Of a DNA stretch of 64,000 nucleotides, positions 19,701 through 46,832 are shown piece after piece. Under the pieces are notes generated by a model. It searched no databases. It was not told the origin of the DNA and saw only the letters and a program-made list of their open reading frames with translations. The position numbers were made by a program, and so were the translations under genes. Source of the DNA: an uncultured virus (IMG/VR IMGVR_UViG_3300002835_000029) (Duplodnaviria > Heunggongvirae > Uroviricota > Caudoviricetes); IMG/VR virus record IMGVR_UViG_3300002835_000029, positions 62,001 through 126,000 of that record; one strand, 5' to 3'. Within the stretch, counting starts at the first letter, position 1, and each line of letters begins with the position of its first letter.

Positions 19701-20389
19701 TTTTTGTAATAATCTCCAATGAATCCAGACGGAAGAGTAAGCTGTGTTTCTAAAACCCAATCAGATTTATAATTGTTTATTGGCCAATCAATAGTAAAAG
19801 GTCTAGGATTTCTTCTATATAAGAAAACAGAACCAGCGTCTTTGTAAGTTATATTTTGCGATGTTATAGATAACTTGGGACACCCAATGGCTAGTAAATC
19901 ACTTTTAGAAGCTATTGATTTACCAAACTGTCCACTACTCTCAATATTATCAGCTAATCTAAAACCGGCATAGTCATTAGTAATTCCATAATTTTCATTT
20001 TTGTTATATTCCATCTCTATAATTTCTGTTGGAATATTTATTGCGCTAGATGATCCAGACTTGCCCGTTATGTTAATTGTATATGGCAAATTTGGGGCTA
20101 GTCCTGTATATTTTCTAATCCCATAGAAATGACCACTATATGGCATGGGGTTGTAACTTACATCAAGTAATTCAGTACGAATAGGATTGTTATCTTCTGT
20201 AGAAACAGATAATCCATCTTCTGTACTTATATAATTGACAGAAGTGAGAGTATGCTTAAATGAACCGCTTGGAAATGTCAAGTTGGTATATGTATTTTTA
20301 GCTCTAAATACGCCACCGTCTACACAAATTTCTGGATAATACCACCTAATGCCGTGAATATCCACTATAGCTTCTGTACAACGATTCAT
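13748..20389 (-). CDS. giant tail protein with FG-GAP beta-propeller blades and inserted domains (2213 aa)
   Basis: Blades QFGKSIA..LAIGCP, QFGHSLD, RFGHDVAIS..IVIGSP, RLGYSVA..IVAGAP, LFGYSIA..ILVGSP, QFGHSVD..IVVGSP, with AG(S/A)V(F/Y) partner strands. Confidence 0.75.
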   Translation of the reverse strand: MNRCTEAIVDIHGIRWYYPEICVDGGVFRAKNTYTNLTFPSGSFKHTLTSVNYISTEDGLSVSTEDNNPIRTELLDVSYNPMPYSGHFYGIRKYTGLAPNLPYTINITGKSGSSSAINIPTEIIEMEYNKNENYGITNDYAGFRLADNIESSGQFGKSIASKSDLLAIGCPKLSITSQNITYKDAGSVFLYRRNPRPFTIDWPINNYKSDWVLETQLTLPSGFIGDYYKKEEVGIGGLSSDFKGIRTSWFVGQNGRQFGHSLDLSVNNSRKSLGENKQEILVVGGVGAKWDRTFEEIPISGVSVGLFIFTDEFESVIPAPVPDNPLRKITYQDILLHIYGKDEVFYYFSDPRVKFDVKIMICVPTLGLDADDPVFPDKPDFITLKRISKNYGYPVSEESISGTLDGIRSAFLEAFPYSNNLNSGIPPMIGMCIDGSLSMGGREALEPAIDRFIDFYKSYSFASGLKDFYNVPSSGFVYEIISENSDSNWINMSKSILNEVLDTGNLFKNDQVRFFSNSVGTFNGNDKDFNIPPDSGGKVFIFEKESGCWNLIQAINSPNVTREYNDRFGHDVAISDNGEVIVIGSPYINQAVMAYERNYAARDMFYYGLPAWIQSNRSEKYAIPLEKYYKSPSRLDDIKALYLSIDQDDKFQSRLDMGIEEYQNIYTYEHSSMQPVGSWSFIAAEHAPTPRLGYSVATNEDGSVIVAGAPTDSLNFYNDADVYYAYNSSFKGKYYGTGYVDPSGLITGPVNSSWSSSLYAGSAHVFESRKYYPHNRAIEYGRFGNLHENISNNTADSGHFHYISQIFSDKNFTKTDFDNSEIPNDAGLVFIITPAVNALSDEVVNNIKNWLALGDRNLVLVANDPIWEASGIYGKSNEILNNLLDRLQSRMRIVPARNHYESLPSGYTSFNNIVPSVIPQGSTYTYVNRSPARASGVADIKVFFSYDEQMSCKPVPGCSLELESQQIQTRCEMPLRNYGDLRASWNELCCKSTPNGTLVPVIYSHNWPLIFGSYTPDCDDVAFESKPTKNQEPIPILVAAEKVRQEIIYPAVPASSGYEIIYEDISSNSIIHEFGSPDDGAETSFSYGLNSQEGIDYNSIEYNITNRQNTELFYKPLDDLGGLLQAKGIAKIDVVPYLYKEQISDRGYFAVEYSYKKQTSSKIDIIANFEIESKFAEGAGDANILFYQNLASSSETRFKESKIAQLNWNGRQFFSDAYPYSQAKGALQIGNNLEQNVSVLNSTYNVAFLPGINGQPSSDNMQNLTEWLSFGNKRLIITCENTLSSIKEAQKLCETLEINLELLTNYYNDNISVGFGSLTINQNHRIGGNNFTNVRTIFRNIEDPNPKLITSLSSFNCGGLSFYAFKLNENAIPLAYLDSPIYDYIPKEYNNNNWDVNAGIVKLNVPVLPGSGYRLFINSEALDTSETVNLTIDVENASLFPKMPYPDLSSAFIPELDSNRETFDSKNITTSFYSLKCNSPIFKDIQVGDTNNINIYISCVSPRLKSDYVPKSVRLLGISGVPIPVYEKITTSTVQIPVGGFLYRISDPIDESREIIDVVRTISTDNTKYCKSGCEFLGNQLIEDGPVVAAQELEIFSSFEAGFARSRVTVITDSSIVQGRYLIDENETIVKSTYDFIRSLYPETYFFSERSGRQVDVYNKLISPERGSPTKYHSRATNLGLNKNFGNFINAPSAPINGNESKYIPKYVTRPKLPWEDEIDPKKVEEIKNQFISGFLPQQFQHSAVSRISGIIDGVSYSDATVIGGVPQILKDKGYDYLDLDKFPSGYPGDLFGYSIAVKGKKILVGSPFSAFNSETITPWSNNVSLRLGSDGGAGAVYMFEKSSDSKWVNSNKFRPQSLMGQLSGVGIYSDQFGHSVDIQNDVIVVGSPNHSYGNYYDFIYNNGSFSRKNFNPQFDIPDLKVYDLGYSGVRNSLNVNNAYNKNAGAVYVYENKITDWENKKQSWTLVEKLVSNPSNPNVAKYFNGSGERFGNNVYITRPYRTDADYCIFAGCGFASGVSKINVGASYAKDIMLRSQKPSIPSSSAWISAKVFGNRDANGDPTVTLDFNNIGDSKKYYASGIVIANENGTLFIEVSGQDPSTKGFISHRPYIESVYGYYQYGKLMEVATPLYVSGGYISPSSQMPLTINVENSAYVYNTVGLYSEVKSGDISTYPSGLPLFIEPPSGVSLEYLNLYSSGTGSQNDNLNLSIRGK

Positions 20390-23300
20390 GTGTTGCAGTC
20401 TCCGTAACAGGCCAAATTGACTCCTCTTATGTTATCATCCGCATCAACATAAGCATAGACATTATCTACAGATGTTATACCCTGACCGACATTATTACTG
20501 TCCCATGTGATTGTGGCACTTTTAGATGCTAATGAGTCCGATATTGGATAATTTAGAGTAATTAGCGGTAAATTGCCGGAAGTATCAAATATTGTAGCAT
20601 TAAAAGCTGATAAAAACAGATTAAAAGATGAACTAGAATTATTAATAATCTGTTGATCATTAAATGTATGGAGTGACATTACTGAAGAGGGGTAGGCATT
20701 AAAAGACTGACTTATTCCACGCACCCTCATTGGTAGTTGTTCATTTATAAATTCTGATCCCACCGGTCCAAATGTCATACAATTTAATGAATTGTCTGCA
20801 TAATAGCCGCTTCCTATTGCATGAAGCGGCATCACATCTTCTCTAATGAATTTTCCACTAACAAATAAATTTAAGCCATTAATTGGACTTGATCCAAACA
20901 TGCTAGAAAATGTTTGTTGGGATGTATCAAGAGATCCATTTGCTATAGTATACAAGTTGCAGATTTCTGGATTAACAAAATATCCACTACTATCAACAAA
21001 AAGTTTTAGTCCGCTCTCATGTATTTGTACTGGTGGGTTTGAATTGGCATACAAATTAAAATATCCACCATTAATAGATGTACCATTTTCTGGGGCAAAA
21101 AGGTTTAAAAATGCAAACTGGTATGGTGATCCACTTACATATAAAGGCATTGTGTCATCTTTTGTTGCGCTTAAATATATTGCATTATCTGATCTTATGT
21201 TAGAACTATGAATTTTAATTTTAGATGAGAATTGTTCACCAGAAGGATAAACCAAATCATATTGTAAAAACATCTGATTTATATCATTAAGAAAATATTT
21301 TTCTTTAAATTCTTTTGAATAAGACTCAACATCAAAAGAAGCCCAAGGTTCAGACGTATCTAAAATGTCATCGAATGTAAATTTACTAGTAATTTTCCTT
21401 ACACACCCAGAAGGTTCTAAGTGATGTATTGATCTATTTACTAGTCCAAATTGTTTACTTGGTCTTTCAAGTGAGTCTTGAGTTTTAGCATATAAACTGA
21501 CGATGAATTTGGGGCCAACTTTTCCATTTGACCACATGATATTATTGTATGTATCATGCTCTAAGATAGTATCAACACATAGTGCTTGATCATAAAAATT
21601 ATATCCCTTGGGCAAATTTTTAGATATTCTAGGAGAAATAGCAAAGAATCTATCTTGATCAACTTGTGGTATATCTGATAGATCAAATCTCAAAAAGTCA
21701 TTTTCAATTTGAGTGTGATAAGCTACCCCGGATAGATTTATATTGTTTGGTAAAGTAAGATTTGTTGTTTGATAATATCCAGATCCGTTATGACTCAAGT
21801 TGAATGTTATAAAGTCCTTACCAATTCTTTTAGTAAAAAAATCGAAATCTGGTGAGAATTGACAAACCTTAAAAGCTCCTAATTTCCACTGAGATATATC
21901 ATCATCAATATAGGAGGCGGGAACATTATATGAATCAAAAAATTCAGATACAGAAATTTGATTTTTAGATCTATCTGGATTAGACTCTACTATATTGCAA
22001 CTATCTTTTGAAATTCCAAATTCATGCAAGAAAATAGGAAGATCAAGGAAGGTACTAGGCATAGAATTTCCTACAGTAATTATTTCATCGCCAGCAAAAA
22101 GGTTATTTACTTGTGTCGATATATATACATCTGATGAATTATTAATATACATCTTTAATCTATTTGTTCCATCGTCATTATATGTAATTAATAAAGACAA
22201 TGGAAACTTTTGATTAAAAAATGATGTTGCATTTATAATAGCACTATTAGTAGCAAGTCTCAAATCAGATCCACTATTATATGATAGTACTAGCTTGGGG
22301 GAGGCTAAATTTGATGGAGAAACTACTTCTAGTAAGTTCTTTGTTTGAAAACTTGTTGCATAATCTGGAGTAAATCTTAAAAAGATACAAAATGAATTGT
22401 TGGATGGAGTAGAAAAAACTTTTAAATATCTTGAAGATCCAGATAATCTTAAGGCTTTATCAAAGGTGTCATCGATATTGTTAGCCCATTTGATTGATTT
22501 ATATGGAGTACTTACGCTACCAAATAGCTGCTCTGAAGAATATCTCCAGCCAACATTAGACAGTAAATGGCTTGATACATTGCCATTAGATAGTTGAGCT
22601 ACCAAAGCACCATCGTCAGAGTATATATTACTATCGGTAACCTTGTTATTAAAATCAATATAAGTGTTCAAGAAGGGACTATTTGCTTGCTTATGATTAA
22701 ACGAGAAATCAAATTCCATCTTCTTAAAATCACCACCTATTATTATTTCTCCAGTGTTTCCCCTCCATCTTCTTGAATAATTTGTGTTTAAATTAGATGG
22801 ATTAGTAAATCCAACTATAGAACCACCAGAAAGATTAGGATTACTAATAGTTCCACTTAAAGATGGTAATAGTGTTATATTTTTTCTAGTAGCATTTTTA
22901 TCAGATGGACTACCAAGAGTATGCATTGAAAGAGCATTGGCGGGCTTATAGTACAAAATCAAACTAACATGCGCAATGGAAGCCCCGCTTGGTATTGGGC
23001 AAATGTCTACATATAAATTTTCAAAATATGGACTAAGAGAATATCTGGTATTTCCTAGCTTTCTTGGATCAGAATAAATCTCTAGTGGTACTATATACTC
23101 TTTAAAGCTTGTGCTGTTTACAACAACCGAGTTGTTAATTATATAGTGATCACCAAGTGGGGATATGTCATTGCTAAAGTATTCGGATTGATCAGATAGG
23201 GAGCTATTAGACATACCAAAGTTAAAGGTATTATATCCAGATACATTTGGCACATTGTTTTCATTAAATCCTAGTGTACCACCATTCTGTAAAAATCCAC

Positions 23301-24876
23301 CAATTGGGGAAGTGCCATACAATAATTTATCATCACTATAGCCTACAACGTCTATTGGGTAATCGGGACTATTTGCATTTTTCTTAGCTATTACTTTAAG
23401 TTCAACGTAGTCTACATCAAAATAATCTTCATATTGATATTCTGAAAGTATAGCATCATTAAAACTTTTATTCCCGCCAAAGTTGAATGCTCCATCAGTA
23501 TAGGTATTCATCCTATCCCGATTGGTTCCAAATCTCAAAACTAGTCTTCCACTATCGATACTAGGGGTAGAATAAATAAGATTAATATAATCTCCATAAT
23601 CTACATTAGTGCTTTGTACTTTTTGAAGCAATGCATTAGATTGTAAATCGGTGGTATTTGTATAAATGCCATCTGGGGTTCTCCACACGCTGCTGGCTTC
23701 TGGATATATCTTATTATTGAAGTCAGTAAGTAATAATTGGTTAGGCAATACTATTTTTTTAGTACGCTCAGACTTTGATCTTACTTGGGTGAAAAAGTTT
23801 AGATAATTATCTTTCTGTATACCAACCCCGCCACTATTGCCAATTTCTAAGGCAGAGATATTTAAACCAATAAATGGATTTGGATTTAAAACATTTGAAT
23901 TAATTATACATGTTTGTTCATATCCAGAATCAAAATTGACATTAAATGGAGAAGAACTACAATCATATGCAAAACTAGTTCTTAGTGTATATGGTCCAGA
24001 AATATCCATTGATGGATAATTTGCGTCCCAAGTTGGTAATAACAAATTATTTATTAGAGGTTTAGATATATAAGTGGTAAATTGTGACTCACCCTCTCCG
24101 CGAATAAGAATGTCTTCATATTGAATTATCAATTTTCCATTTGGGTCTTCAAACTTTATATCATATAGCCTATACTGTTCTGGCTTTTTGTTGATATAGC
24201 TACTGAAAGGTGCTGAAGCCCTAACTGCTAAATAACTTAACTTTGCGACAGAAAGAGGTGTTGTAACAGCAAATTTATATTCTATATCCCCGCTAGCAAA
24301 AACTCTATAAGTAAAGCCAAAAGATTGTGAATCATCTGATATAATAGAGCCAACTTTTCCATTGTCCACATAGTCTTGAGTGAAAACCCCGTCATCTATA
24401 CTAGAGTAAATCGCAGTAGATCTTATAATATTATTCTCAATTTTATATACAGTTATATTTTGATTTGATGGTTTGCTTTTGAAAGATATATCTTGAATTG
24501 GATATAGTTTTTCAGAAGCCCTAAAGCTGGGTTTATATCCAGCGAACTTGTCTGGTTTCTTTGTCTTAAGACTTCCAGATCCAAATAGTTTTTGATTAAT
24601 AGCTAGAAGTGCTGAAGTGTAAGATGATATATTTCCAACAGCTGATTGAGATAGATCTTTTTTTAGAGAAAAATCTACATTTTCTTTCGGAGCGATAGAA
24701 CATACAGATGATAGTCTCGCTGAAAAATTTCGGTATACACTAACATTTTCTCTTAATGCAGATGTGGATGAAATTCTTGATGACGCACCATTGCTAACAG
24801 AGGAAATCTTAGCAGATAATTTACTATCTGAAAGCAATACAGTATTAGTATTTATAACGCATGAAGAACAAGTCAT
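20386..24876 (-). CDS. large tail protein with ConA/LamG-like domain (1496 aa)
   Basis: LamG-like segment FCIFLRFTP..LLITYN..LKMYIN; C-terminal (L/M)(N/P)L(F/Y) repeats; TAATG-coupled to the tape measure. Confidence 0.6.
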   Translation of the reverse strand: MTCSSCVINTNTVLLSDSKLSAKISSVSNGASSRISSTSALRENVSVYRNFSARLSSVCSIAPKENVDFSLKKDLSQSAVGNISSYTSALLAINQKLFGSGSLKTKKPDKFAGYKPSFRASEKLYPIQDISFKSKPSNQNITVYKIENNIIRSTAIYSSIDDGVFTQDYVDNGKVGSIISDDSQSFGFTYRVFASGDIEYKFAVTTPLSVAKLSYLAVRASAPFSSYINKKPEQYRLYDIKFEDPNGKLIIQYEDILIRGEGESQFTTYISKPLINNLLLPTWDANYPSMDISGPYTLRTSFAYDCSSSPFNVNFDSGYEQTCIINSNVLNPNPFIGLNISALEIGNSGGVGIQKDNYLNFFTQVRSKSERTKKIVLPNQLLLTDFNNKIYPEASSVWRTPDGIYTNTTDLQSNALLQKVQSTNVDYGDYINLIYSTPSIDSGRLVLRFGTNRDRMNTYTDGAFNFGGNKSFNDAILSEYQYEDYFDVDYVELKVIAKKNANSPDYPIDVVGYSDDKLLYGTSPIGGFLQNGGTLGFNENNVPNVSGYNTFNFGMSNSSLSDQSEYFSNDISPLGDHYIINNSVVVNSTSFKEYIVPLEIYSDPRKLGNTRYSLSPYFENLYVDICPIPSGASIAHVSLILYYKPANALSMHTLGSPSDKNATRKNITLLPSLSGTISNPNLSGGSIVGFTNPSNLNTNYSRRWRGNTGEIIIGGDFKKMEFDFSFNHKQANSPFLNTYIDFNNKVTDSNIYSDDGALVAQLSNGNVSSHLLSNVGWRYSSEQLFGSVSTPYKSIKWANNIDDTFDKALRLSGSSRYLKVFSTPSNNSFCIFLRFTPDYATSFQTKNLLEVVSPSNLASPKLVLSYNSGSDLRLATNSAIINATSFFNQKFPLSLLITYNDDGTNRLKMYINNSSDVYISTQVNNLFAGDEIITVGNSMPSTFLDLPIFLHEFGISKDSCNIVESNPDRSKNQISVSEFFDSYNVPASYIDDDISQWKLGAFKVCQFSPDFDFFTKRIGKDFITFNLSHNGSGYYQTTNLTLPNNINLSGVAYHTQIENDFLRFDLSDIPQVDQDRFFAISPRISKNLPKGYNFYDQALCVDTILEHDTYNNIMWSNGKVGPKFIVSLYAKTQDSLERPSKQFGLVNRSIHHLEPSGCVRKITSKFTFDDILDTSEPWASFDVESYSKEFKEKYFLNDINQMFLQYDLVYPSGEQFSSKIKIHSSNIRSDNAIYLSATKDDTMPLYVSGSPYQFAFLNLFAPENGTSINGGYFNLYANSNPPVQIHESGLKLFVDSSGYFVNPEICNLYTIANGSLDTSQQTFSSMFGSSPINGLNLFVSGKFIREDVMPLHAIGSGYYADNSLNCMTFGPVGSEFINEQLPMRVRGISQSFNAYPSSVMSLHTFNDQQIINNSSSSFNLFLSAFNATIFDTSGNLPLITLNYPISDSLASKSATITWDSNNVGQGITSVDNVYAYVDADDNIRGVNLACYGDCNT

Positions 24877-27800
24877 TATCTATTTCCTAAGACCTTACTA
24901 TCTCTTTTTAGTTTTCCACCCTCTACTACTCTAAACTGTGACTCTATAGACTCAAATATCTTTGTTTGAACTTCGCCAGTAAGGGCTTTTAATAACCCTC
25001 CATCATTTAAGTTAACATTGACATTTGTAGAGTCTAATTTAATACTTATATTAATTCCTTTAAGTTTTTCTACGGCTGAAGATATTTCAGCACCAAACGT
25101 GGTAGCGAACTTTGATAATCCATCAAACATTCCAGAGAAGAATCCGCCACCGCCAGCTTGTCCACCTTCAGAAAAGTATTGAACCCTACCACCTCTTGCC
25201 ATACCAACGGCACTACCATCTGAGCTAACAGCCCCTACGCTGTTATTGTTATTCATTGCGTGTAGCAGTTGTAAATTATTACCACGTTGGACTGCGCCTC
25301 TATTAACTACAAATTCACCCGGTGTTAACATGGCTGGAACAGTGTCAGTCCCTCTGGGTACAAATATACCACGACTTGCATATACAACGCCACCCCTAGA
25401 CATTGCTCGTTGATTTTCTATTGCTTGAGCTTCTTTAGCTTTTTCATTGCCCCTTTCCATAGTTTTGTCAAATGTAACTTGTGCTGCTGTTAAATTAACA
25501 ACGGATGTTTTTACTTGCATTTCTGCTATTTCTGTTCCAACTTGTCCAGTTTCTCCTAACATTCCGCCTAGCTCACGAAGCCTTGATTTACTAGCTTCTT
25601 CTTCGGCTGTTGTTCCAGCCATTACTTGTGCTGCTCTCATATCAGTTACACCTCTTGCTGATAGAGCAGAACCAGCGGCAGCTTCTGTTAAACCGCCGGG
25701 GCCAGCGAGTTGTTGACCATATAATTCTTGGACGCCAGCATCTTGTTGACGTTGAATATCTTGATATGCCATCCCAAGAGCATCAGCACCATAAAAGTTT
25801 TGTAATCTACTATCTCCGCTTGCTATAGCGGCAGTAGCACCAACAGCAGATTGTTTCTTAAAGAAATCTTCAACATCTCCCTTGATTAAAGACTCCATAG
25901 AATCTTTTTCAAGCTTGTTTTTCTCTTGAGTAATTTTAAGCTGCTCTTCTTCTAGTTTGATTAATCCTCTTATTGTATCAATTTGTGTCTTATAGGCTTT
26001 CTGTAAGTCTTTTTGAGTTTCATCAGCTTCTACGCCAGATTTTCCTGACATTCCACCCTTTTGACTTCTTTTGGCTTCTATAGCGGCAAAACTATTCTTA
26101 ATTTCAGTATTTCTTTGTCTTAACTCTCCTATGCTGCCAGTTCTCATATTTGTTAGACCTAGCCTACCGCTTTCGGCATTAGACTTGGCTAATAAGTTGT
26201 TTCTTCTTTCTTGTCCGGTAACGGCTTTGCCACCATATTTACCTTGAATTTCACGACCCTCCATAGTCAAGTCAAGAGCTTCTTGCTGTGCTTGAACTAG
26301 ATTTCTTTCAGCATCAATTCTCTTCTTAGTAAAGTCAATTAATACTTGTTCAGCTTTTGCTCTTTCGGCAGCAATTTTCTGAACATCTTCAAGCATTTTC
26401 TTTTGAGATTCAGATAGTTTATCTCCAAATACGCTTAAATCTCCAGCAAGTATTTTATCTACTTCTCCGGTATCTAATTCCATTCCTTCAATAACTGATT
26501 TTAGATTCTTTTTGGCATCTTCGGAAACATCTGGACCCATACCCTTAGTTAATTCTTCTGCAAATTTCTTTTTTAGATCGTCTGGACTTAAATTCTTAAA
26601 ATCGGCATCAGACATTGACTTCTTAATATTATTGAAAGCTGTGTTATAACCGGCTTGAGCTTGAGTAAATGCGGCAACATTACCTTCAAATTTCTTAATA
26701 TACTGCTCAGAAGATCCAAACTGTCTAAGATTATCTGATACACCCTTAACAGCATTCTGAATTTCTGCGGGGTCCATAGCTTGAGCAGAACTACTCATAG
26801 CTTGCTGTAAAAATTCAACATCATTTACGAATGCTGATCCACCAACCTCTAGACCGGCAGAAAAATTATTCATGTTAGCTGATAATGCGGTAGCAGTCGC
26901 AACCGCAGAACGCAAACCAAGATTCATAGCATTATACAATTCTTTTTGACGCTTAACCTCTTTCTCAATATTCTCTATTTCTTTATCTACTTGCTCCATT
27001 TGATCAGCTATTTGCTTGGCTTGAGCTATAGCAGCATCATAAGTTGTATCATCTCCAGATTTTGCAGCAGATTGAGCGGTTTTTAAAGCTTCTTCTCGCT
27101 GACTTCGAAGACTACCCATCGCTTGTGTTCTGATATCTTTTGCATTGCCACCCCTCGCTAAGCCAGATCTAATAGCAGCTTGCCTAGCAGGACTTTCAAC
27201 ATTAAAAGCTTCTTGTTGTTGTTTGGATGCATTATTAATTTGTTCTACATTTTGAGTGCTTAACTTATCATTTCTTTCTTTTGCCGAGTCAACATAACCT
27301 AAACTTAAATAGGCCATAGTTTCTCGACCATAGCTCAATGCCCCAGTAGATCTATTTTTACTATTTTCTTTTGCAAGTGAAGCTGCTCTTCCCACTTGAG
27401 ATGCCGCTTCACCACTTTTAGCTCTAATCTTTGCTAGAGCATCAGAAGCAGATATGGTTCCATTTTTAAAATCATCCATAGCTTTAGCAGCTATTTTTTG
27501 AGCTTCATCTAAGGATTTTTGAGTCTTAACTGCTCCAGCTTGGGCTGCGGCTAATGCAACAGCACTAGCTCTAGTATTTCCACCAAATAAAACATTGATA
27601 CCTTCTGTAAAATCGGGTGCAATATAAGCCAGTAACGTTCCTCCAAGATTTCCTATAGCTGCACCAATTAATGCTCCAAATGGACCACCAAAAAATGCAC
27701 CAATACCAGCACCCATTGTACCATATAAAGCTCTAGTGCTATTAGCAGCTTCTAAATCATATTGTTGTCCAGCTAATTTAGAAGCTTCTTGTACTTTACC

Positions 27801-30800
27801 TTCTTCTGTCGCTTTCTTTAATTCTTTAGACTTATCATAAAAAGCACCAATCATAAAATTAAACGCTTTAGTTACAGCGTATGCAATGCCAACTATTAAC
27901 AATAATGGTCCAGCAACAGCAACGGCGGCAGCTATAAATGGTGCCATCGCCGTCAATAATCCTGCCGCAGCCGTAAATGCTGCCGCAGCAAATCCAGTAG
28001 TTCCAGCAGCAGCTAATGTAGCAGAACCAGCTAATGTTAATGTTGCTGTGCTAGCAGCGGCACCGGCAGTACCCATCAAAAAACTAGCCGCTGTGGATGC
28101 CATAGAAGCAACTGTAGAAGCATTCAAAGTAATACCAAATGCAGATGCAGCAAAAGCTAAACCAGTTATAGTTGTTATAACTCCAAGAACACCATGAGAC
28201 ATTTGTGTAAGTAAGCTAGCATTTTCATCTAATGGTGGCAGCATAGACTGAATTGTTCCACTAACCATAGAAAGTCCCATTGCTACATTGCCAAAATCCA
28301 TACCAGAAGCTTTAGAACTACTTACAGCTTCTGCTGCATCAGCTTTTGCTGCTTTATCTGAAGCGGCAGCTTCTGTCATATTAGACTGAGCAGCTTTTTG
28401 AGATGCTATTGCTTGGGCATTTGTTGCGGCAATTGCTTTTGCTTGAGATTGACTTAAACCATCACCTAGACCTTTGCCAAGGTCTTCTGCCGTTACTTGT
28501 CCTTTTTTAGCTTTATTTTCAAGAAGTGCTACATTTTTTTCCTGTTCAGTAGCAAAAGTTCTACCTAACGGTCCTGTTTCGCTTTTATATTGTCCAACCT
28601 TTGTTCTTGCCTTTGCATCCTCTGCTTCTGCCGTCATTGATGCTTCTCTTAAAACGCCGCTACTACTAGCTGGTATTCCTGTTCCACCTTTGCCAGCATT
28701 TAATTGCGCATCAGCGGCAGCTAATGCTTGACGATGAGCTTCTTCTGCTGATACTCCAGATTTTAAAGCTCTAGCTAATGCTTTATATGCAGCTGTTACT
28801 TCTTCTTCCATAAAGAGTAAGTCCTGCATCTCTTTAGTAAGTTTATCAAATGTGTCAGAATTCTTTTTCATCGAATCTTTGACTAAAGCTGCATCTTTAG
28901 GACTTAATTTGCCCATTATTGCATCTGTAACTCTTGCTCCACTAGCGGCTAAGTCGCCGGGGGCTTTAACTCCAGAACCAGAAGATCCAGCCGCAAAGTG
29001 TTGAACAACTCCACCATTCGCATATTTTCCAACCTTGTTCATCCTATTTAACGAACCATAACCAATACGCTGTGCAGACTTACGATTAACAACAAACTCA
29101 CCGGGAGTTAATAGGGCGGGAACGGTATCAGTACCAACTCCACCGCCGGTAGCAAATTCACGGCGAGTTTCATAATCTCGCATAGATTTGCCCTGCCTTC
29201 TCATTGCATCAGATATTCTATTTTGTTTATCGGCTTGGGCTTTCTGAAATGCCCCATAAGCTGCCGATTGTGGCCTATAAGTTCCCATCCACTTTGGTAG
29301 TTTTACACTTCCCGGTCCACCAAAGTTAGTATAAATAAAATCTCCACGGGCATCTTTGGAGTTAAATAAAGCAATAGCGTCTTTCTCGCTTAATGCTGAA
29401 TTGCCCTGTAATTCTCTCATCCCCTTAACAACGTCGGAGATTAAATATTTTTGTGTTCCTCTTTCTAATACTTCACCACCTTCTGCAAACTTTTGGATAA
29501 GTCCACCAAAATATCTTTTTTTAGCAGATCCAATAATAGATTGAATGAATGGCAAACTTTCTAGGGCAAGTTGACCAGAGACTTTAGATTTTAAAGCGTC
29601 CTCACCGGGACTAGTCAATAAACCTGTTGTTCCTAAACCAGCTGATGATTTTGTAATTTTAGCATCTATATAATCCATGCCAAGATTACCATAGATACTT
29701 CTAAACTTGCCAATACCTCTTGTGAAGTCAAATGGTCTTCTTGAATCTTGTCCAGATAGGGGTTTGCCAGCTAATGCTGAAATAGTATTTTCAAATAATT
29801 GACCACGAAAACCTTGGTCTAAAGTATTATAAAAAGATGATAATTTTTTCACCGATCCGGGTGGTGATGTTTTCATTACCTCTGTAGCGAATCTATTTGC
29901 AGATGTGTCAATAGCTGTTGAAATAGATTGATTAATTATATTAGCAAATTGAGATTCTTCATCTCTGCCAACACCCTCTATGGTAGCTCCAAATGCAAAA
30001 TTTTTCTTACCCTTGAATAAACTTTGTATTGCCTCTAAAGAATTTTTTGGACCAAATTTAGAAGATAAACTATATCCAACGCCTCCTATAACTTGATTAA
30101 TAACATCAGAATCTCTATCGATAGAAATATTAGAAGAAGCAGGTTGCGGTAGATAAGAAGTAGTGGCTATACCAACAGAAGATTCTCTTGAAAATCTAGG
30201 AGATTTAATGGAAGCGCGAGAGGATGATAAAACATCAGCCGTAGACATGCCCATTTGTTTTGCTTTTGTGATTCCACCAGCCGCATATCGATTTTCATTC
30301 ATCGCTGCTAGTCTTCCAGCACCCATCTTGTTGACGCTACTTTTGCGTATAACAAATTCACCGGGAGCTAACATCGCAGGAACAGTATCTCCGTTCCCAG
30401 TACCGGGAACTAAACCACCTCTAGCAAACCCAAGAACTTTACCACCTTTATTATAAGTTCGTCCAGAAGCAGCACCACTCATCATGCCACCAAAAAAACC
30501 ACCCAATCCTTTAGCTAATCTAAAAGTTGCTAAAGCAGCAAGCATTGGTAGTAGTGGTTTAATAGAATCTCCAATTTTGATTAAAGCTGAAGCTAATGAT
30601 AGCGCAGTATTTGCCATTATCTGAAAAGTAGAAGTTTCAGTAATACTACGAATTAATGCCAAAAATTCTTCTTTGACTTTCATAATTCTAACAGCAAGTG
30701 CCGCCTGTGCCGATGCAGCATCTTGAGTTAAAGAATCGCCCGCTTTCATTGCGACATTAAGCGCAGACTGAGCAGTAGAGAATTGCTGTAATAGTGGAAG

Positions 30801-31799
30801 AACTTTACCAATTTGTCGGAATCCACCAAGCTCTTCAGCAATTCTAATAAATGTAACATCACCATCGCCAAGTCCAGCTAATGCCTCACTTAGCCTTTTA
30901 ATGGCTTCGTATGGGCCAACAAACTTACCATCTAAGTCTGTTAGTTCAACACCAAACTGTTTTAAGTATTCAATGGTCTTTGGTCGCTGGATACGTGTGA
31001 AGATTGTACGTAAGCCAGTACCAATACTTTCAGCACTCTCTCGGGTTGTGGCTCTTACGCTAGTAAATAGTGCTAAAAGTTCATTAAGATTACCACCAGA
31101 AGATTTGAATACACCACCCGTTCTACGAACAACGTCAATTAAGTCACTGGCTTCTACGGCGAATGCACCGGCTACAGCGTTAATAGAACCAAGCTGCTTT
31201 TCTAATGCTCCAACGCCTTGACCAAATTGTGCTAAGATAGCAATAGCACCTTCTGCCGTTTCTGTTATGCTATCAAAGTTAGGGGCAAGAGCAGCTTTTG
31301 CTAACGTTCTTAATGCTGCCGATGTGTCTTCAGCACTTAAACCGGCTTGTGCTAAAATTGTAGAAACATTAAGTAAATCAGAAGATGCAACACCAAATCC
31401 AGTAGACAAATCAGTAATTTGCTTAGTTAGTCCACGAAGCTGACCTATGCTTTTTCCAGTGACCTGAGAGACTTTAATCAATTGCCTCTCAAAGTCAATG
31501 GATGCTTGAACAGCATCACCAAGAGTACTGGTGAATAAGCCAACCGCCCGCGTGGCAATAGAAAAGGCAGCAAAACGCCTAATAGATAGAGCAAATGCTT
31601 TACCCATGCGTTCTGCTGCTGTTGTTGCTTGATTAGTTGCTTGAGCTACTTGCTGAATTTGTTTTTGAGCTTGTCCAGCATTCTGGACTTGTATGTTAAC
31701 ACTAACGCCATTTAACTGGGTTTGTATTTGTTGTACAACTTGCTTAACATTATTCGGGGCTTGTAGCTGTAATTGTGCGGTCAGTACGAATTTGGACAT
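24876..31799 (-). CDS. tail tape measure protein (2307 aa)
   Basis: TP901-type core (SIDFERQLIKVSQVTG..LAQAG..), Ala/Gln-rich helices, hydrophobic stretch near 27600-28300, three DTVPA(M/L)L(A/T)PGEFV motifs; AAGGAG RBS. Confidence 0.92.
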   Translation of the reverse strand: MSKFVLTAQLQLQAPNNVKQVVQQIQTQLNGVSVNIQVQNAGQAQKQIQQVAQATNQATTAAERMGKAFALSIRRFAAFSIATRAVGLFTSTLGDAVQASIDFERQLIKVSQVTGKSIGQLRGLTKQITDLSTGFGVASSDLLNVSTILAQAGLSAEDTSAALRTLAKAALAPNFDSITETAEGAIAILAQFGQGVGALEKQLGSINAVAGAFAVEASDLIDVVRRTGGVFKSSGGNLNELLALFTSVRATTRESAESIGTGLRTIFTRIQRPKTIEYLKQFGVELTDLDGKFVGPYEAIKRLSEALAGLGDGDVTFIRIAEELGGFRQIGKVLPLLQQFSTAQSALNVAMKAGDSLTQDAASAQAALAVRIMKVKEEFLALIRSITETSTFQIMANTALSLASALIKIGDSIKPLLPMLAALATFRLAKGLGGFFGGMMSGAASGRTYNKGGKVLGFARGGLVPGTGNGDTVPAMLAPGEFVIRKSSVNKMGAGRLAAMNENRYAAGGITKAKQMGMSTADVLSSSRASIKSPRFSRESSVGIATTSYLPQPASSNISIDRDSDVINQVIGGVGYSLSSKFGPKNSLEAIQSLFKGKKNFAFGATIEGVGRDEESQFANIINQSISTAIDTSANRFATEVMKTSPPGSVKKLSSFYNTLDQGFRGQLFENTISALAGKPLSGQDSRRPFDFTRGIGKFRSIYGNLGMDYIDAKITKSSAGLGTTGLLTSPGEDALKSKVSGQLALESLPFIQSIIGSAKKRYFGGLIQKFAEGGEVLERGTQKYLISDVVKGMRELQGNSALSEKDAIALFNSKDARGDFIYTNFGGPGSVKLPKWMGTYRPQSAAYGAFQKAQADKQNRISDAMRRQGKSMRDYETRREFATGGGVGTDTVPALLTPGEFVVNRKSAQRIGYGSLNRMNKVGKYANGGVVQHFAAGSSGSGVKAPGDLAASGARVTDAIMGKLSPKDAALVKDSMKKNSDTFDKLTKEMQDLLFMEEEVTAAYKALARALKSGVSAEEAHRQALAAADAQLNAGKGGTGIPASSSGVLREASMTAEAEDAKARTKVGQYKSETGPLGRTFATEQEKNVALLENKAKKGQVTAEDLGKGLGDGLSQSQAKAIAATNAQAIASQKAAQSNMTEAAASDKAAKADAAEAVSSSKASGMDFGNVAMGLSMVSGTIQSMLPPLDENASLLTQMSHGVLGVITTITGLAFAASAFGITLNASTVASMASTAASFLMGTAGAAASTATLTLAGSATLAAAGTTGFAAAAFTAAAGLLTAMAPFIAAAVAVAGPLLLIVGIAYAVTKAFNFMIGAFYDKSKELKKATEEGKVQEASKLAGQQYDLEAANSTRALYGTMGAGIGAFFGGPFGALIGAAIGNLGGTLLAYIAPDFTEGINVLFGGNTRASAVALAAAQAGAVKTQKSLDEAQKIAAKAMDDFKNGTISASDALAKIRAKSGEAASQVGRAASLAKENSKNRSTGALSYGRETMAYLSLGYVDSAKERNDKLSTQNVEQINNASKQQQEAFNVESPARQAAIRSGLARGGNAKDIRTQAMGSLRSQREEALKTAQSAAKSGDDTTYDAAIAQAKQIADQMEQVDKEIENIEKEVKRQKELYNAMNLGLRSAVATATALSANMNNFSAGLEVGGSAFVNDVEFLQQAMSSSAQAMDPAEIQNAVKGVSDNLRQFGSSEQYIKKFEGNVAAFTQAQAGYNTAFNNIKKSMSDADFKNLSPDDLKKKFAEELTKGMGPDVSEDAKKNLKSVIEGMELDTGEVDKILAGDLSVFGDKLSESQKKMLEDVQKIAAERAKAEQVLIDFTKKRIDAERNLVQAQQEALDLTMEGREIQGKYGGKAVTGQERRNNLLAKSNAESGRLGLTNMRTGSIGELRQRNTEIKNSFAAIEAKRSQKGGMSGKSGVEADETQKDLQKAYKTQIDTIRGLIKLEEEQLKITQEKNKLEKDSMESLIKGDVEDFFKKQSAVGATAAIASGDSRLQNFYGADALGMAYQDIQRQQDAGVQELYGQQLAGPGGLTEAAAGSALSARGVTDMRAAQVMAGTTAEEEASKSRLRELGGMLGETGQVGTEIAEMQVKTSVVNLTAAQVTFDKTMERGNEKAKEAQAIENQRAMSRGGVVYASRGIFVPRGTDTVPAMLTPGEFVVNRGAVQRGNNLQLLHAMNNNNSVGAVSSDGSAVGMARGGRVQYFSEGGQAGGGGFFSGMFDGLSKFATTFGAEISSAVEKLKGINISIKLDSTNVNVNLNDGGLLKALTGEVQTKIFESIESQFRVVEGGKLKRDSKVLGNR

Positions 31800-41934: not shown

Positions 41935-44900
41935 TTATTGATCTTCATCTGAGGGATAAATAAATACATCTAAGTTATTACCATTTGCTTGTAAATATAT
42001 ATCTATATTTATGGGATCTGGGTAAGTAGAGCCATATTGAAAATTATTTTGTATTGTTTGAGATATTGCATTTATGACTCTATTATCTGTACTACTATTA
42101 GAAGAATTAACACTATATACTAAAACTTTAGATGTTTCTGATATTGGTGGAATAGATATTCTATTTAAAGAAAATCGATAGTATTGATAGCCAGCATTAG
42201 AATTAAATATTGCATATACATTGATATTGTCATAAATAGTGTCGCTATCAACATTACCGTTGCAATCAACAAAGTTACTAATTGTACACCCGCATAATGG
42301 GTTATCACTAAATACTGCTGAAGAGTATGTAGCATCTGGAAGACTTACATAACTTGAACAATTATTGGGTCGGCAAGAATATACAAACTCTACATCTGCT
42401 AGCATTGGTATCTTTGGTTCATAAAACGGAGCTTCTGGATATGTTGGATCTGTATAGTATCCTTCATATCCTATAAATATGTCAGGACCGATAAATCTAG
42501 ATACATTATTCCATCCCAACCCTAGAGCAGAAACCCTATAACCAAAACCAAACTCTGGTATGCCACTACAGACTTCATCACCAATAAGTTCTATATCATT
42601 TCCGGCAGTATTTATATAGCCATAATTTTTATCATTTCCATAAATTCCATGTGATACTCTATCTACAACAACCCAATCTTGATATGGTTTTCTATAGCGT
42701 ATGGGTAGTGTGAATCCAACAGCAGCCCTATGTCCAGTTCCAACTACGCTATCATTTACTGGAGATAGGTGAAGTGTCATAAGAAATTTGGCGGGAAAAG
42801 CATATGTCGAAGAAAGATTTGATCCATCAGCATAGAAGTATTCTCTATATTTACTATCACCAAGCGTAAATTCTTGAAAACTTATAGTATATGGATTTGT
42901 AGTACTATCCGTAGTATTTAATCTCCAATCTAGATTACTACCAAATTTATCAAATACGTATACACCGCTAAATACTGGGTCGTTAGGTATTGTAATTTTT
43001 ATTCTATTGGAAAGATTGACGGGCTGATAGTCACTATCGTAAGGGCATATTTTTCCAGATGCTGATGGGGGTGCATAATTGATTACATTTGGATATATAT
43101 ATGGATTATGAGGAACATCAACAGAATTTGTTCTTGAAAGATTGTATGGTGGATAATAAGTTTTACCGCAATCACTACTTGAGTTTGAAAAATAATTATT
43201 ACTAGGATTGTCCCAACAGCATAGAAATGGATCTTGAGAAGAACACTTTAAATAAAGTACTCCAGAATTAGTATTGTCAGTAGATAATTTATTTGTCCAT
43301 GAAGACAGTGTGCTTTCGCTTATACCGGGAAGCACATTCCCAACCACTTTGGATATTGTATAGTAATTTGGTTTAGTAATATTTCCAAAATAGCCATCAC
43401 TTGGTGGTAATTTTAAACCATAAACATCGCTTTGCGTCTTTAATAATAATGCTGCCGCGATACTATCAGTGGGTTTGAACAGAGATATATCATAATTTTG
43501 ACTATTTATTTGGGGTGCGATAAAATTGTTTGGAATTTCAAATATGCCTCCAGAAACTTTGATTAAATATTGATAATTAACTTGTTCTTGACCCACTGGT
43601 AGTGTTAATACTTGAGGGGAGCTAAACATAGTGATATGTAGGGGATGGTTTGTATCGCCTCTTAATATTGGTCTTAAACTAACTTGCCACTTACCAGTAG
43701 TTGTATCATAATATCTATTTCCTACATTACTGCACGGCTGCAATATTGTACTATTTACATAGTTTATATTATCAAGATAGTTTGTTCCACCAAGATATAT
43801 ATCAAATAATAATGCTCCACTTGAAGTAGTAAACTCTACGGCGTTGGTAAATGGATACTTTCCAACTAAATAGTTATCTGTGCATGTAGATGGATCTACG
43901 GTAGTAGTAGTGCTAGTTGAGGTTGAAGTACTAGTAGAGGTACTTGTACTGGTAGAAGTTGAAGTCGAAGTGCTAGTTGTGGTTGTAGTGGGACATACAT
44001 AGTCGCTAGTTCTAGCACTCCCATCTCCAGTAGAATTTGCTGTTACACAAGTTGGAGCAATATCGCTCTGAGTGGCGTAAGAATAATATCCGGGGGAATT
44101 AACTCCTCCTTTTATCGGGCTGTAGTATGCCGCCTTATACCATTCATTTTCTGTGGGAATATGGTATTTGGCGTTTATATTTTTTGCTACAGAATCTCCG
44201 TTAACTCTCCCGTTAAGGGGATATGCTCCATTTTCTGTTGTGGTACTATCTTGAGGTCCAGATAACTTACCATTATGAAGCCAATTGCAATATCTTGCAC
44301 AATTAAACCATGTAACATGAACAGCAGGCTTATTGCCCATATCAGTTTTAAAACTATACCTCCAACTACCAGCAATACCATTTCTATATATACCACCTCT
44401 AGGATCATCTGACATATCTGAGTTGTAGATATCATAAGTATCATTAGTGCCTACAGCATTCAAAAACTCAACATATTCACAATTGGTTACAGTATATTTT
44501 CCTATACTATAAATATAGTTTACAGCTCCATAACCTGTAATATCATTATTATTATCAGTATTTGCTATAGTAACAAAATTAGGTAAATTTAAAGGGTTAG
44601 GAGTAGAGAAGGAGCTTGCAATGCGAAAACCGATGTCGCTTTGCTTGAAATAAGGATCGTCCACGTTCCTACTGGATGATGTCAAGTAGAACGCATTAAG
44701 ATTCCAGCTGCCGCCGCGAAGATAAATATTAATATTTCCGTAACGACCTGTCGTATTACCAAGTGTATCGGTCCACTGCCACACATTACCACCTTGGTCG
44801 AATGTACCATAATAACTAGAACGACCATTACTTCCAACAGTAGTAACATTACCATTAAGAATATTCCAATCAGCACAACTATTAAAATTTGCAGAATTTA

Positions 44901-45564
44901 AATTGGGTACAGCAGTGGTGCTAGTCGAGGTGCTAGTACTAGTAGAAGTAGAAGTGCTAGTCGAGGTACTGGTGCTAGTCGAGGTACTGGTGCTAGTCGA
45001 GGTACTGGTGCTAGTGGATGTACTGGTGCTAGTGGATGTGCTGGTGCTAGTAGTAGTTGGTACTGGAGTAGGAAATACAAGTCCTCGCTCAGTTATACAT
45101 GGAACAGTAATAGTGTTAATTGATGGATTTAAAGTTATTATTGGATTTGAACAACATTCTGGAGTTTCAATGTTGCACAAACTTTTAACAGATACTGCAA
45201 ACTTTTTATCAGATCCAGATGTAATTAATACTGGTATGAATATAACATTTTCATTTAATGATGCAATATTTATAAATCCAAAATTTTCATTTGTAATATA
45301 ATCATATATAGAAAGTTGTACATTATCTTGAATGAGTGGTAATGATCCATCACCCCAATATATCTCAAATCCAATAATATTGTTACTAAAGTTTTGCTTT
45401 TTAGAGGTGGTTACAAATCTCTTTCCATTATTTACTACACAATCAATACTATGAACTAACTCTAAGTCCGTAAAGCCGCTGTTATGCAAAGCTCTTAGTC
45501 CAAATCCATTTTTATTGTATTTGGTTCCAACCGGAATAGATATTGATCCGCATATACAGCTCAT
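41935..45564 (-). CDS. Cys-rich virion surface protein with circularly permuted FGE/SUMF1 (C-type lectin fold) domain between Ser/Thr stalks (1209 aa)
   Basis: Motifs YGTFDQGGNVWQW, RGGSW, IGFRIA, YTVTNCEY, PAVHVTWFNCARYCNWL, IPTENEWYKAA. Confidence 0.8.
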   Translation of the reverse strand: MSCICGSISIPVGTKYNKNGFGLRALHNSGFTDLELVHSIDCVVNNGKRFVTTSKKQNFSNNIIGFEIYWGDGSLPLIQDNVQLSIYDYITNENFGFINIASLNENVIFIPVLITSGSDKKFAVSVKSLCNIETPECCSNPIITLNPSINTITVPCITERGLVFPTPVPTTTSTSTSTSTSTSTSTSTSTSTSTSTSTSTSTSTSTSTSTSTSTSTTAVPNLNSANFNSCADWNILNGNVTTVGSNGRSSYYGTFDQGGNVWQWTDTLGNTTGRYGNINIYLRGGSWNLNAFYLTSSSRNVDDPYFKQSDIGFRIASSFSTPNPLNLPNFVTIANTDNNNDITGYGAVNYIYSIGKYTVTNCEYVEFLNAVGTNDTYDIYNSDMSDDPRGGIYRNGIAGSWRYSFKTDMGNKPAVHVTWFNCARYCNWLHNGKLSGPQDSTTTENGAYPLNGRVNGDSVAKNINAKYHIPTENEWYKAAYYSPIKGGVNSPGYYSYATQSDIAPTCVTANSTGDGSARTSDYVCPTTTTTSTSTSTSTSTSTSTSTSTSTSTTTTVDPSTCTDNYLVGKYPFTNAVEFTTSSGALLFDIYLGGTNYLDNINYVNSTILQPCSNVGNRYYDTTTGKWQVSLRPILRGDTNHPLHITMFSSPQVLTLPVGQEQVNYQYLIKVSGGIFEIPNNFIAPQINSQNYDISLFKPTDSIAAALLLKTQSDVYGLKLPPSDGYFGNITKPNYYTISKVVGNVLPGISESTLSSWTNKLSTDNTNSGVLYLKCSSQDPFLCCWDNPSNNYFSNSSSDCGKTYYPPYNLSRTNSVDVPHNPYIYPNVINYAPPSASGKICPYDSDYQPVNLSNRIKITIPNDPVFSGVYVFDKFGSNLDWRLNTTDSTTNPYTISFQEFTLGDSKYREYFYADGSNLSSTYAFPAKFLMTLHLSPVNDSVVGTGHRAAVGFTLPIRYRKPYQDWVVVDRVSHGIYGNDKNYGYINTAGNDIELIGDEVCSGIPEFGFGYRVSALGLGWNNVSRFIGPDIFIGYEGYYTDPTYPEAPFYEPKIPMLADVEFVYSCRPNNCSSYVSLPDATYSSAVFSDNPLCGCTISNFVDCNGNVDSDTIYDNINVYAIFNSNAGYQYYRFSLNRISIPPISETSKVLVYSVNSSNSSTDNRVINAISQTIQNNFQYGSTYPDPINIDIYLQANGNNLDVFIYPSDEDQ
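43898..43990 (-). repeat. Thr/Ser low-complexity linker
   Basis: Encodes PTTTTTSTSTS...STTTTV. Confidence 0.85.
44912..45062 (-). repeat. (Thr-Ser)n linker with ~18-bp tandem units
   Basis: Units such as gtgctagtcgaggtactg and gtgctagtggatgtactg on the + strand. Confidence 0.85.
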
Positions 45565-46832
45565 TTTAACAAATCTTTCAAGATTGTAATTAATTTTTGA
45601 TACTTATGTGGTCTATACTTGGAGGCAACTTCAAATGCATTCAACAAGTCATTTTTGCTTATAAGATTTACATTAATATCATCTAATATATTGCACTTGA
45701 CTGTCCCGTTTATTAATGAATAATAATCAATTTCGTTAAGAATGTTAGATATAAAGTCAATACTCATATCATTGCCCACAATAACTTTCAGTCTAAAGCT
45801 TGAATCTTTATATTTGTACATCTTTTGAAGATTTTCTTCTTCGTATCCAAAGTTAACAAGAATGTCTATTATTTTACTTATGTTTTCATCAGATGCTTCA
45901 TAAACAAAATCTAAATCTCTAGGATTATCATTTATATGATACATCTTCAGTGCATATCCACCAACTAATACCATGTTAACACCGCTATTAATCATTTCTT
46001 CTATTATTTTTTTTGTAGTTATCTCTTGGGTAGCACCGAATAGTTCATTTTGTGGCAAAGTTACAGATGCAAAATTAGAAATAATATATGGAGGCTCACA
46101 TAGTCCTTCGGATGGGCAACAACCATTTTGTGGGTCGTAACTCCATCCTATTGCACAGCATATGGGTTTGCCGTCTGGCGTAACTCCAACCTGCGCCATT
46201 TTGGCTATTGCGCACGGATCAATTGGTGGCTCAGTAGTAGTAGCAACTGGAGTTGTGGTAGCTTGAGGGGTAGTTGTAATATTGGGAGTAGTGGTAGTTG
46301 GTGCTACCGTGGTGGTAGTTGGTGCTACAGTAGTGGTAGTTGGTGCTACAGTAGTGGTAGTTGGTGCTACAGTAGTGGTAGTTGGTGCTACCGTGGTGGT
46401 AGTTGGTGCTACCGTGGTGGTAGTTGGTGCTACAGTTGTGGTAGTTGGTGCTACAGTAGTGGTAGTTGGTGCTACAGTAGTGGTAGTTGGTGCTACAGTA
46501 GTGGTAGTTGGTGCTACCGTGGTGGTAGTTGGTGCTACCGTGGTGGTAGTTGGTGCTACAGTTGTGGTAGTTGGTGCTACAGTAGTGGTAGTTGGTGCTA
46601 CAGTAGTGGTAGTTGGTGCTACAGTAGTGGTAGTTGGTGCTACCGTGGTGGTAGTTGGTGCTACCGTGGTGGTAGTTGGTGCTACAGTTGTGGTTGGCGG
46701 TATAGTGGTGTTAGTGGTTGTGGGAGGCTCATAGCACAAACCACCACAAGGTGGCTCATCATATGGCCCGCTCACTATCTCATGTAAAGATAGGTTAATC
46801 TGAGAAGATTTTAAACAAACATAACTAGGCAT
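45561..46832 (-). CDS. Cys-rich, mucin-like repeat protein fused to a nucleotidyltransferase-like domain (423 aa)
   Basis: N-terminal C..SGPY..CxxxC; (VAPTTTT) repeats; CC..CC knot; C-terminal LVGGYA..RDLDF. Confidence 0.7.
   Translation of the reverse strand: MPSYVCLKSSQINLSLHEIVSGPYDEPPCGGLCYEPPTTTNTTIPPTTTVAPTTTTVAPTTTTVAPTTTTVAPTTTTVAPTTTTVAPTTTTVAPTTTTVAPTTTTVAPTTTTVAPTTTTVAPTTTTVAPTTTTVAPTTTTVAPTTTTVAPTTTTVAPTTTTVAPTTTTVAPTTTTVAPTTTTPNITTTPQATTTPVATTTEPPIDPCAIAKMAQVGVTPDGKPICCAIGWSYDPQNGCCPSEGLCEPPYIISNFASVTLPQNELFGATQEITTKKIIEEMINSGVNMVLVGGYALKMYHINDNPRDLDFVYEASDENISKIIDILVNFGYEEENLQKMYKYKDSSFRLKVIVGNDMSIDFISNILNEIDYYSLINGTVKCNILDDINVNLISKNDLLNAFEVASKYRPHKYQKLITILKDLLK
46288..46692. 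repeat. 21-bp tandem repeat, 19 units, with 126-bp higher-order period
   Basis: ggtgctac recurs every 21 bp from 46300 to 46678; variant order is B(AAABBC)x3. Confidence 0.95.

Follow-up and report, generated by a model that had tools for sequence, protein, structure and literature searches.

A probable fossil variable region of bacterial type in the circularly permuted lectin module of a lake phage devoid of reverse transcriptase

The genes acted upon by diversity-generating retroelements (DGRs) are commonly assumed to belong to the genome that carries the element. A variable region (VR) standing in a genome devoid of both a reverse transcriptase (RT) and a template repeat (TR) raises the question of where it was written from. 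Such a case is offered by the gene for a 1209-aa virion protein within a stretch of 64,000 nucleotides from an uncultured virus of the Caudoviricetes (positions 62,001 to 126,000 of IMG/VR record IMGVR_UViG_3300002835_000029; this whole stretch is hereafter called the window). An earlier note, made from the letters alone, had drawn attention to a VR-like patch in the middle of this gene with no RT or template in the window, and indeed neither was found there. We propose that the patch is probably a fossil DGR VR in the binding loop of a circularly permuted phage lectin, which was overwritten by a TR of bacterial type from a donor outside the phage and is now frozen.

The patch is distinct from its surroundings by its composition. 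The codon string given for RGGSW...IGFRIA in the earlier note is exact (minus strand, open reading frame (ORF) 41935..45564), 23 of its 32 codons end in C or T, and both GC counts were reproduced, namely 54/110 (0.491) at 44611-44720 versus 29/120 (0.242) at 44461-44580. Only 1.7% of the 110-bp segments of the 128,858-bp record, whose mean is 0.351 GC, reach 0.49. Amino-acid composition alone, which the note had retained as a possible cause of the excess, was ruled out by codon-usage simulations in which expectations were derived from the protein's own residues and the codon usage of the phage. Indeed, 37-codon segments over aa 265-325 display a GC content of 0.41-0.44 for an expected 0.31-0.34, and the 35-codon patch has 20 G or C at third codon positions (GC3, 20/35) versus 8.2±2.4 simulated, a value reached in none of the 20,000 simulations. 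Likewise, C occupies 14/35 third positions for 5.0±2.0 simulated (20,000 draws). The GC excess of the patch is thus synonymous-level. A similar excess is found elsewhere in the gene in the first (Thr-Ser)n linker only; there it is as strong as in the patch (z 5.7 vs 5.0) and has a different cause, the codon choice of the repeat unit.

A template matching this patch was located in bacterial contigs, next to the genes for an RT and bAvd, and this is the new element of the present work. It was searched for with a pattern of two invariant scaffold pieces, run on species-representative genomes and on a metagenome collection. In the former, the pattern occurs at 14 loci, all of 0.61-0.68 GC, distributed among Planctomycetota-type metagenome-assembled genomes (MAGs; 11 loci, 2 of them in MAGs labelled Kuenenia), a 532-kb Chthoniobacterales contig (1 locus) and small contigs of actinobacterial bins (2 loci). 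Thirteen of them are VRs and the fourteenth, L102, is a TR, with AAC at the variable codons, an upstream flank unlike the coding sequence that precedes the VRs, and a gene order of bAvd (E 2.6e-21), RVT_1 (E 1.4e-21), then TR. The same pattern picked up 102 stretches in the metagenome collection, from which 80 loci were retrieved and 60 distinct matches obtained: three are TR-like, one belongs to a contig of 0.44 GC whose sequence downstream is of phage type, and the rest are VRs in contigs of 0.53-0.69 GC. Contig L181 holds a whole cassette, composed in this order of a target (FGE-sulfatase and PEP-CTERM), bAvd, RT and TR, and the mismatches between its own VR and TR fall on 19/32 adenines and 4/93 other positions. 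The TR is nearly invariant among five contigs, its copies differing by 1-2 positions only. The eight VR-bearing bacterial ORFs examined in full are 350-430 aa long; each begins like a signal peptide, contains a single FGE-sulfatase domain of canonical form and terminates in PEP-CTERM. Two other DGR templates of these MAGs, L120 and L127, specify a comparable peptide through scaffold codons of their own, so that the agreement between phage VRs and the L102-type TR is specific at the DNA level. The search for a template copy that the earlier note had proposed thus had two outcomes: none is present in the phage, as detailed below, and GC-rich contigs of bacteria hold a matching TR, adjacent to bAvd and RT.

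Comparison of the window patch with the L102 TR shows that 57/75 non-adenine positions are equal (39.2±2.7 simulated, maximum 50), as are 22/35 third codon positions (7.5±2.1 simulated, maximum 17). None of the 20,000 simulations, drawn from the patch's own residues and the phage codon usage, reached either value. With an agreement at synonymous sites so far beyond expectation, the window patch descends from this TR family. The match is well above chance yet not near-identical, with 18/75 non-adenine mismatches, of which 15/18 are changes from GC to AT. Both anchors, RGG and GFR, persist, as does most of the 3' end, and three of the last nine positions of the TR span differ (CGC ATT in the window vs CGT CTC). 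The AT-rich five-codon insert (NINIY) sits within the stretch that aligns to the 5' part of the TR in relatives and is absent from the other aligned modules. In phage BPP-1, a hairpin/cruciform is present downstream of the VR. Folding of the sequence downstream of the VR, for nine bacterial VRs, seven phage VRs and that of the window, revealed no such structure above shuffled sequences (z -1.6 to +0.9).

Among 50,697 GenBank phage records, neither the gene (megablast) nor its protein (tblastn) has a match. A search of IMG/VR for relatives of the 279-aa module returned 51 loci. Retaining modules that span query residues <=20 to >=270 and removing duplicates and partial matches left 52 distinct modules, including the window's, which occur at any position of giant proteins in numbers from one to four or more. 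The most variable part across these modules is the RGG-to-GFR loop, and in about a dozen of the closest ones the GC3 of the patch amounts to 0.55-0.83 versus 0.21-0.42 in the remaining module. The 52 modules were classified by their non-adenine mismatch to the TR over a 105-nt core: seven are fresh (<=12%; L011, L016, L006, L009, L048, L005 and L049), seven, including the window's, are intermediate (13-27%), and 38 are baseline (>30%, typically 50-60%), among them L023 and L026 of a 151,782-bp record. An eighth fresh VR is provided by L111. In the codon alignment, scaffold codons are DNA-identical between different phages, with NNC codons interspersed. Across eleven modules (the seven fresh and four intermediate ones), amino-acid identity is 0.44 inside the patch versus 0.70 outside, whereas codon identity at shared residues is 0.78 inside versus 0.52 outside; a lower residue identity together with a higher codon identity is the signature of templated rewriting.

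Pooled against the TR, the seven fresh modules are mismatched at 110/210 adenines and at 37/525 positions elsewhere (Fisher P 3e-40), and L111 at 16/31 adenines and 7/94 other positions over 125 nt. The comparison of homologs in related phages, which the earlier note had called for, therefore brought out a clean VR in seven modules, with mismatches concentrated at TR adenines. The agreement of fresh phage VRs with the GC-rich TR of the bacteria extends to 88-96% of the non-adenine sites, while the non-adenine changes of intermediate modules are mostly from GC to AT, and the fresh, intermediate and baseline modules form a decay series. Judged by sequence comparison, a bacterial-type TR accounts base for base, at non-adenine positions, for the VRs of at least eight RT-less phage modules. 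A flank-bracketing pattern for alleles of one phage clade matched one locus only. As a side observation, L005, L023, L026, L029, L034 and L036 carry up to four or more permuted FGE modules per giant protein, and L005 combines one fresh VR, one intermediate VR and one baseline module in a single protein.

The machinery that could have written these VRs was not detected in the phages. RVT_1 was looked for in 48 phage records, of which nine reach a completeness of at least 90%, and is present in none; this count includes 0/44 for the relatives' records (seven at least 90% complete; those of L017 and L048 not included), and G060 has none either. The window's own record G000, 84% complete, is without RVT_1 match and without a second copy of 44560-44860, even with 7-nt words. 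The same phage is represented by the 158,798-bp record G001, which is 100% complete; its locus L003 is identical to the window over 12.8 kb except for three units (63 bases more) of a 21-bp tandem repeat. G001 contains neither RVT_1, nor bAvd, nor a second copy of the stretch. More broadly, bAvd was found in 0/5 phage records and a second copy of the stretch in 0/6, including G009, G006, G004 and G060, three of these four being complete. Three pattern scans of IMG/VR (2.9 million viral contigs) gave no TR-like copy, and looser patterns matched no TR; the exact TR-type 21-mer had no match in viral contigs, and an 18-mer with NN had 37, made up of 33 chance matches in GC-rich contigs and 4 VRs. 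A phage DGR outside the window, one of the sources put forward in the earlier note, is therefore rejected, and since the phage lacks RT, Avd and TR, the donor is to be sought outside its genome. As to the other source, a host DGR acting in trans, its first half is favoured, as a template outside the phage is what the bacterial TR beside bAvd and RT points to, while writing in trans is what we infer from it.

The 21-bp tandem repeat just mentioned lies at 46287-46694 of the window on the minus strand, in gene 45561..46832, with 19.4 copies and 95% matches. It encodes a 7-residue repeat in the 423-aa protein upstream, and is apparently a length-variable repeat in a structural gene.

The position of the patch in the gene deserves consideration, as the earlier note had found it unusual that some 890 codons follow a VR (about 893 by our count). 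The 1209-aa protein consists, in order, of an N-terminal region, a (Thr-Ser)n linker, the FGE module, a second (Thr-Ser)n linker and a C-terminal region of 650 aa without family match. FGE-sulfatase (PF03781) is the sole Pfam family in this protein (E 1.7e-19, 70.9 bits for a cut-off of 23.3) and its profile is matched in swapped order, positions 155-254 (aa ~233-316) preceding positions 37-126 (aa 352-483). Consistently, the half that comes first shares 52% identity by BLASTP with residues 231-327 of the bacterial target L181, and the half that follows 43% with its residues 28-209. An AlphaFold2 model of the whole module, computed from 38 aligned modules, is predicted to be compact (pLDDT 87.4, pTM 0.91). 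In this model, VIA-align places residues 1-98 on C-terminal parts of EgtB-IV (Z 6.1), PvdO, pFGE, Mtd (Z 4.1) and TaqVP (Z 3.5), and residues 99/104-279 on N-terminal parts of CarF (Z 6.2) and TvpA (Z 5.2), the Z values being modest because each match spans half of the model only. A Foldseek search of the model against the PDB gave nothing at E <= 0.001 and partial FGE-fold rows only, as expected for a permuted domain. The FGE domain of the phage module is circularly permuted, and this is why the patch lies mid-gene while still closing the C-terminal half of the fold, which accounts for the oddity raised in the earlier note.

The closest relatives of the module are not enzymes but DGR variable proteins and PEP-CTERM surface proteins. 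Among the best 80 of at least 602 bacterial relatives, 49 bear Planctomycetota-type titles, 23 Verrucomicrobiota-type titles and 8 others; these 80 have GC contents of 0.46-0.73, and the half order is N-then-C in 44 of the 54 of their ORFs with both motifs.

The window's copy does not seem to vary at present. The stretch occurs in 24 lake runs dated 2016-2024, of which 12 are a possible source of the record and were excluded from the count; the fraction of sampled words present in the remaining 12 is 0.63-0.94. Over the module, neither G001 nor L004 differs from the window. In four of these 12 runs, the contigs covering the patch do not differ from it either, bar one contig of a variant strain. 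This contig is 240 nt long and comes from a strain diverged by 6%; the patch accounts for 36% of it and for 5 of its 15 differences, and hence shows no excess. Gaps in contig cover near 44530-44640 in the four runs carry no evidential weight. No current hypervariation of the window patch was seen among contigs. The earlier note held that an outside template "is or was" the source of the loop; the past tense is borne out by the TR match and the relatives, while the present tense is not, as the copy looks decayed and frozen.

Other histories of the patch have to be weighed. The phage lineage might once have carried its own cassette with the same TR, now lost or in unsampled DNA, an explanation that would benefit from the incompleteness of G000 and from the movement of DGRs between phages and bacteria described in the available text of Wu et al. 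2018 (PMC5758913). We consider it unlikely, given that the complete G001 is devoid of RT, bAvd and second copy, that the records without RT include those of six of the seven fresh VRs (that of L048 not included), that this TR type is missing from the viral contigs scanned, and that drift would be expected of a TR residing in a phage of 35% GC, whereas the fresh VRs still fit the GC-rich TR as closely as they do. The patch could also have come from a VR-bearing FGE gene of a bacterium by gene conversion or by homologous recombination, the third source put forward in the earlier note, which would dispense with reverse transcription into the phage altogether. Module and bacterial targets are indeed homologous over their full length (43-52% at the amino-acid level), and some DNA homology to the bacterial gene exists upstream of the TR span (identity 0.47-0.77). 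On the other hand, downstream of the VR the bacterial (PEP-CTERM) and phage genes are not homologous, their identity of 0.13-0.33 being near random, so that a second crossover would have to be confined to the last ~18 nt. Furthermore, in the six fresh modules examined, the bacterial-like tract is limited to the TR span and identity drops to flank level outside it. This makes the recombination scenario very improbable.

Finally, the window's VR could still be an active target, diversified in trans at present. The retained RGG and GFR anchors and 3' end would be compatible with this, and rare variants are invisible in contigs. Against it stand the 18 non-adenine mismatches with their bias from GC to AT, the three changes in the last nine positions of the span, the five-codon insert just upstream, the identity of the module in G001, L004 and the covering contigs of the four other runs, and the occurrence of the stretch, at the word fractions given above, in twelve other runs of a collection that extends over 2016-2024. 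Present activity is therefore hardly credible.

We thus retain a fossil VR written from outside the phage, for which the following course of events can be proposed. The module is homologous to the FGE-domain PEP-CTERM surface proteins of Planctomycetota and Verrucomicrobiota, which in those bacteria are the natural targets of the target-bAvd-RT-TR cassette. The 105-nt stretch of the phage would once have been overwritten by adenine-mutagenised complementary DNA (cDNA) from an L102-type TR. The donor was most likely the DGR of the infected cell acting in trans, cDNA from the cell-borne cassette presumably entering the phage gene during infection, and the module appears to keep the 3' end of the target, common to bacterial VRs. 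Later, the copy would have drifted toward the AT-rich composition of the phage and received the five-codon insert, now just upstream. At present, it probably encodes one fixed allele of the binding loop of a tail or virion lectin.

Several observations weigh against this reading. The adenine bias of the window taken alone is not significant (12/30 adenines vs 18/75 other positions, Fisher P 0.15), and the VR call consequently rests on the synonymous identity to the TR and on the relatives. Part of the non-adenine mismatches of the window could stem from an unsampled, more AT-rich TR variant rather than from decay. The comparison of the four lake runs was based on contigs and not on raw reads, in which form rare variants are invisible, and a search for close relatives of the L011 module, from which same-species pairs with different VRs might have come, returned only itself (100%). 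The host is also a point of concern: TR-bearing contigs have 0.60-0.69 GC and the phages 0.32-0.40, no link of these phages to hosts of the Planctomycetes-Verrucomicrobia-Chlamydiae (PVC) group was found, a 336-aa protein of capsid size had no match in 301 Planctomycetota genomes, an empty result that is uninformative, and the two phage genomes scanned have one tRNA each. Jumbo phages may indeed differ widely in GC from the bacteria they infect, phiKZ being an example. Record G060, labelled 'provirus', is uniformly of 0.29-0.37 GC and its ends bear no integrase or clear host gene. The sole tRNA that ARAGORN detects in the window's phage record is a tRNA-Ser with the unusual anticodon ACT (G000:C1:7011-7097, outside the window).

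Our confidence is evenly divided over a broader proposition, according to which a clade of large, RT-less, AT-rich lake phages has the loops of its fibre lectin modules rewritten, by mutagenic retrohoming from a cellular TR into a phage gene, by the DGRs of the Planctomycetota and Verrucomicrobiota that it infects, the target domain of the host having been captured and permuted with its homing end kept; the window would then hold a decayed example, and the eight fresh modules named above well-preserved ones. What makes the locus interesting is chiefly this wider pattern, in which phages lacking an RT carry VRs that fit a TR of bacteria.

In canonical DGRs with proteins of the C-type-lectin/FGE fold (BPP-1 Mtd, Treponema denticola TvpA and Thermus TaqVP), the VR is likewise the RGG-to-GFR loop at the end of the fold. 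The phage relatives resemble these systems in having NNC where the TR has AAC and mismatches at TR adenines, and the halves of the predicted model align with Mtd, TvpA and TaqVP (Z 3.5-5.2). They differ in that the phage is without RT, Avd and TR, that its VR is mid-gene in a permuted fold, and that the window's copy is decayed. With the lake Planctomycetota and Verrucomicrobiota cassettes (L102, L181, L177, L130, L206), the phage VRs share the TR scaffold codons, and the targets of these cassettes are 43-52% identical to the phage module. In the bacterial targets, however, the domain order is canonical, a signal peptide and PEP-CTERM are present, and the gene is next to the RT in DNA of 0.60-0.69 GC, whereas the phage copies are permuted, within giant fibre proteins of genomes of 0.32-0.40 GC.

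Remote targets offer another comparison. As far as the available text of Wu et al. 2018 (PMC5758913) goes, non-adjacent targets occur within one genome, avd-TR-brt works in trans from a plasmid, and remote targets are not expected for phage-associated DGRs. The present case would resemble these in that a VR is rewritable by a non-adjacent cassette; it would differ in that the remote targets described there share a genome with the RT, whereas in the present case an infecting phage would bring the target and the cell would hold the cassette. The largest metagenome survey, Roux et al. 2021 (PMC8144416), used an approach which, by its available text, is unable to detect remote targets. In the portions of the literature accessible to our search, no account was found of a cellular DGR writing into an RT-less phage, which is not proof of absence.

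If a cellular DGR does write these VRs, phages could diversify host-range determinants without the cost of the machinery, and 'orphan' VRs would need a second explanation besides cassette loss. The permuted fold explains a VR lying 890 codons from the gene end, a location that would escape programs in which the VR is expected to be C-terminal and adjacent to an RT.

Two further observations concern the templates. At L097 (G051:C1, ~273 kb, in the 532-kb Chthoniobacterales contig), an L102-type VR stands in a 131-codon frame comprising only the C-terminal FGE half and PEP-CTERM. The sole RT found in this MAG is ~30 kb off, at L120 (G051:C1 302849-303478), whose TR has other scaffold codons, and L097 may be another VR with its cognate template outside its own assembled genome. 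Besides, Ser-Asn-Lys-Gly-Ile replaces Ser-Ser-Arg-Gly-Leu in the 5' part of the VR in phage L009 module 0/L112 and in bacterial L101, L106, L144, L160 and L170; in L009 module 0, the GC-rich bacterial-like tract extends ~27 nt further upstream. The alignments suggest a second TR variant behind this form, of which none was found.

The coordinates of the features of the gene are gathered below.

Table 1. Features of the lectin gene and of its patch, in window coordinates (aa, residues of the 1209-aa protein; TRF, Tandem Repeats Finder)
Feature	Position	Strand	Basis or description
Gene for the 1209-aa virion/tail-module protein	41935..45564	minus	ORF, translation
(Thr-Ser)n linker 1, 18-bp period array	44917..45060	minus	Translation; TRF 44916-45051
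C-terminal half of FGE/C-lectin fold, first in protein (aa 222-317)	44614..44901	minus	Pfam, BLASTP, structure alignment
AT-rich 5-codon insert (NINIY), directly upstream of patch	44722..44736	minus	Codon alignment
Probable relic DGR variable region (patch)	44617..44721	minus	35 codons, aa 282-316, LRGGSW...GFRIA
N-terminal half of FGE/C-lectin fold, second in protein (aa 318-500)	44065..44613	minus	Pfam, BLASTP, structure alignment
(Thr-Ser)n linker 2, 18-bp repeat units	43906..43992	minus	Translation; TRF 43909-43965

The genes around 41935..45564 match PHROGs of tail fibres, virion structure and tape measures. On the same strand, the window also contains giant ORFs at 24876-31799, 13748-20389, 20386-24876 and 6729-11483, coding for 2307, 2213, 1496 and 1584 aa, respectively. 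The first of them matches tape-measure families, the second has FG-GAP repeats, and the other two are without family match.

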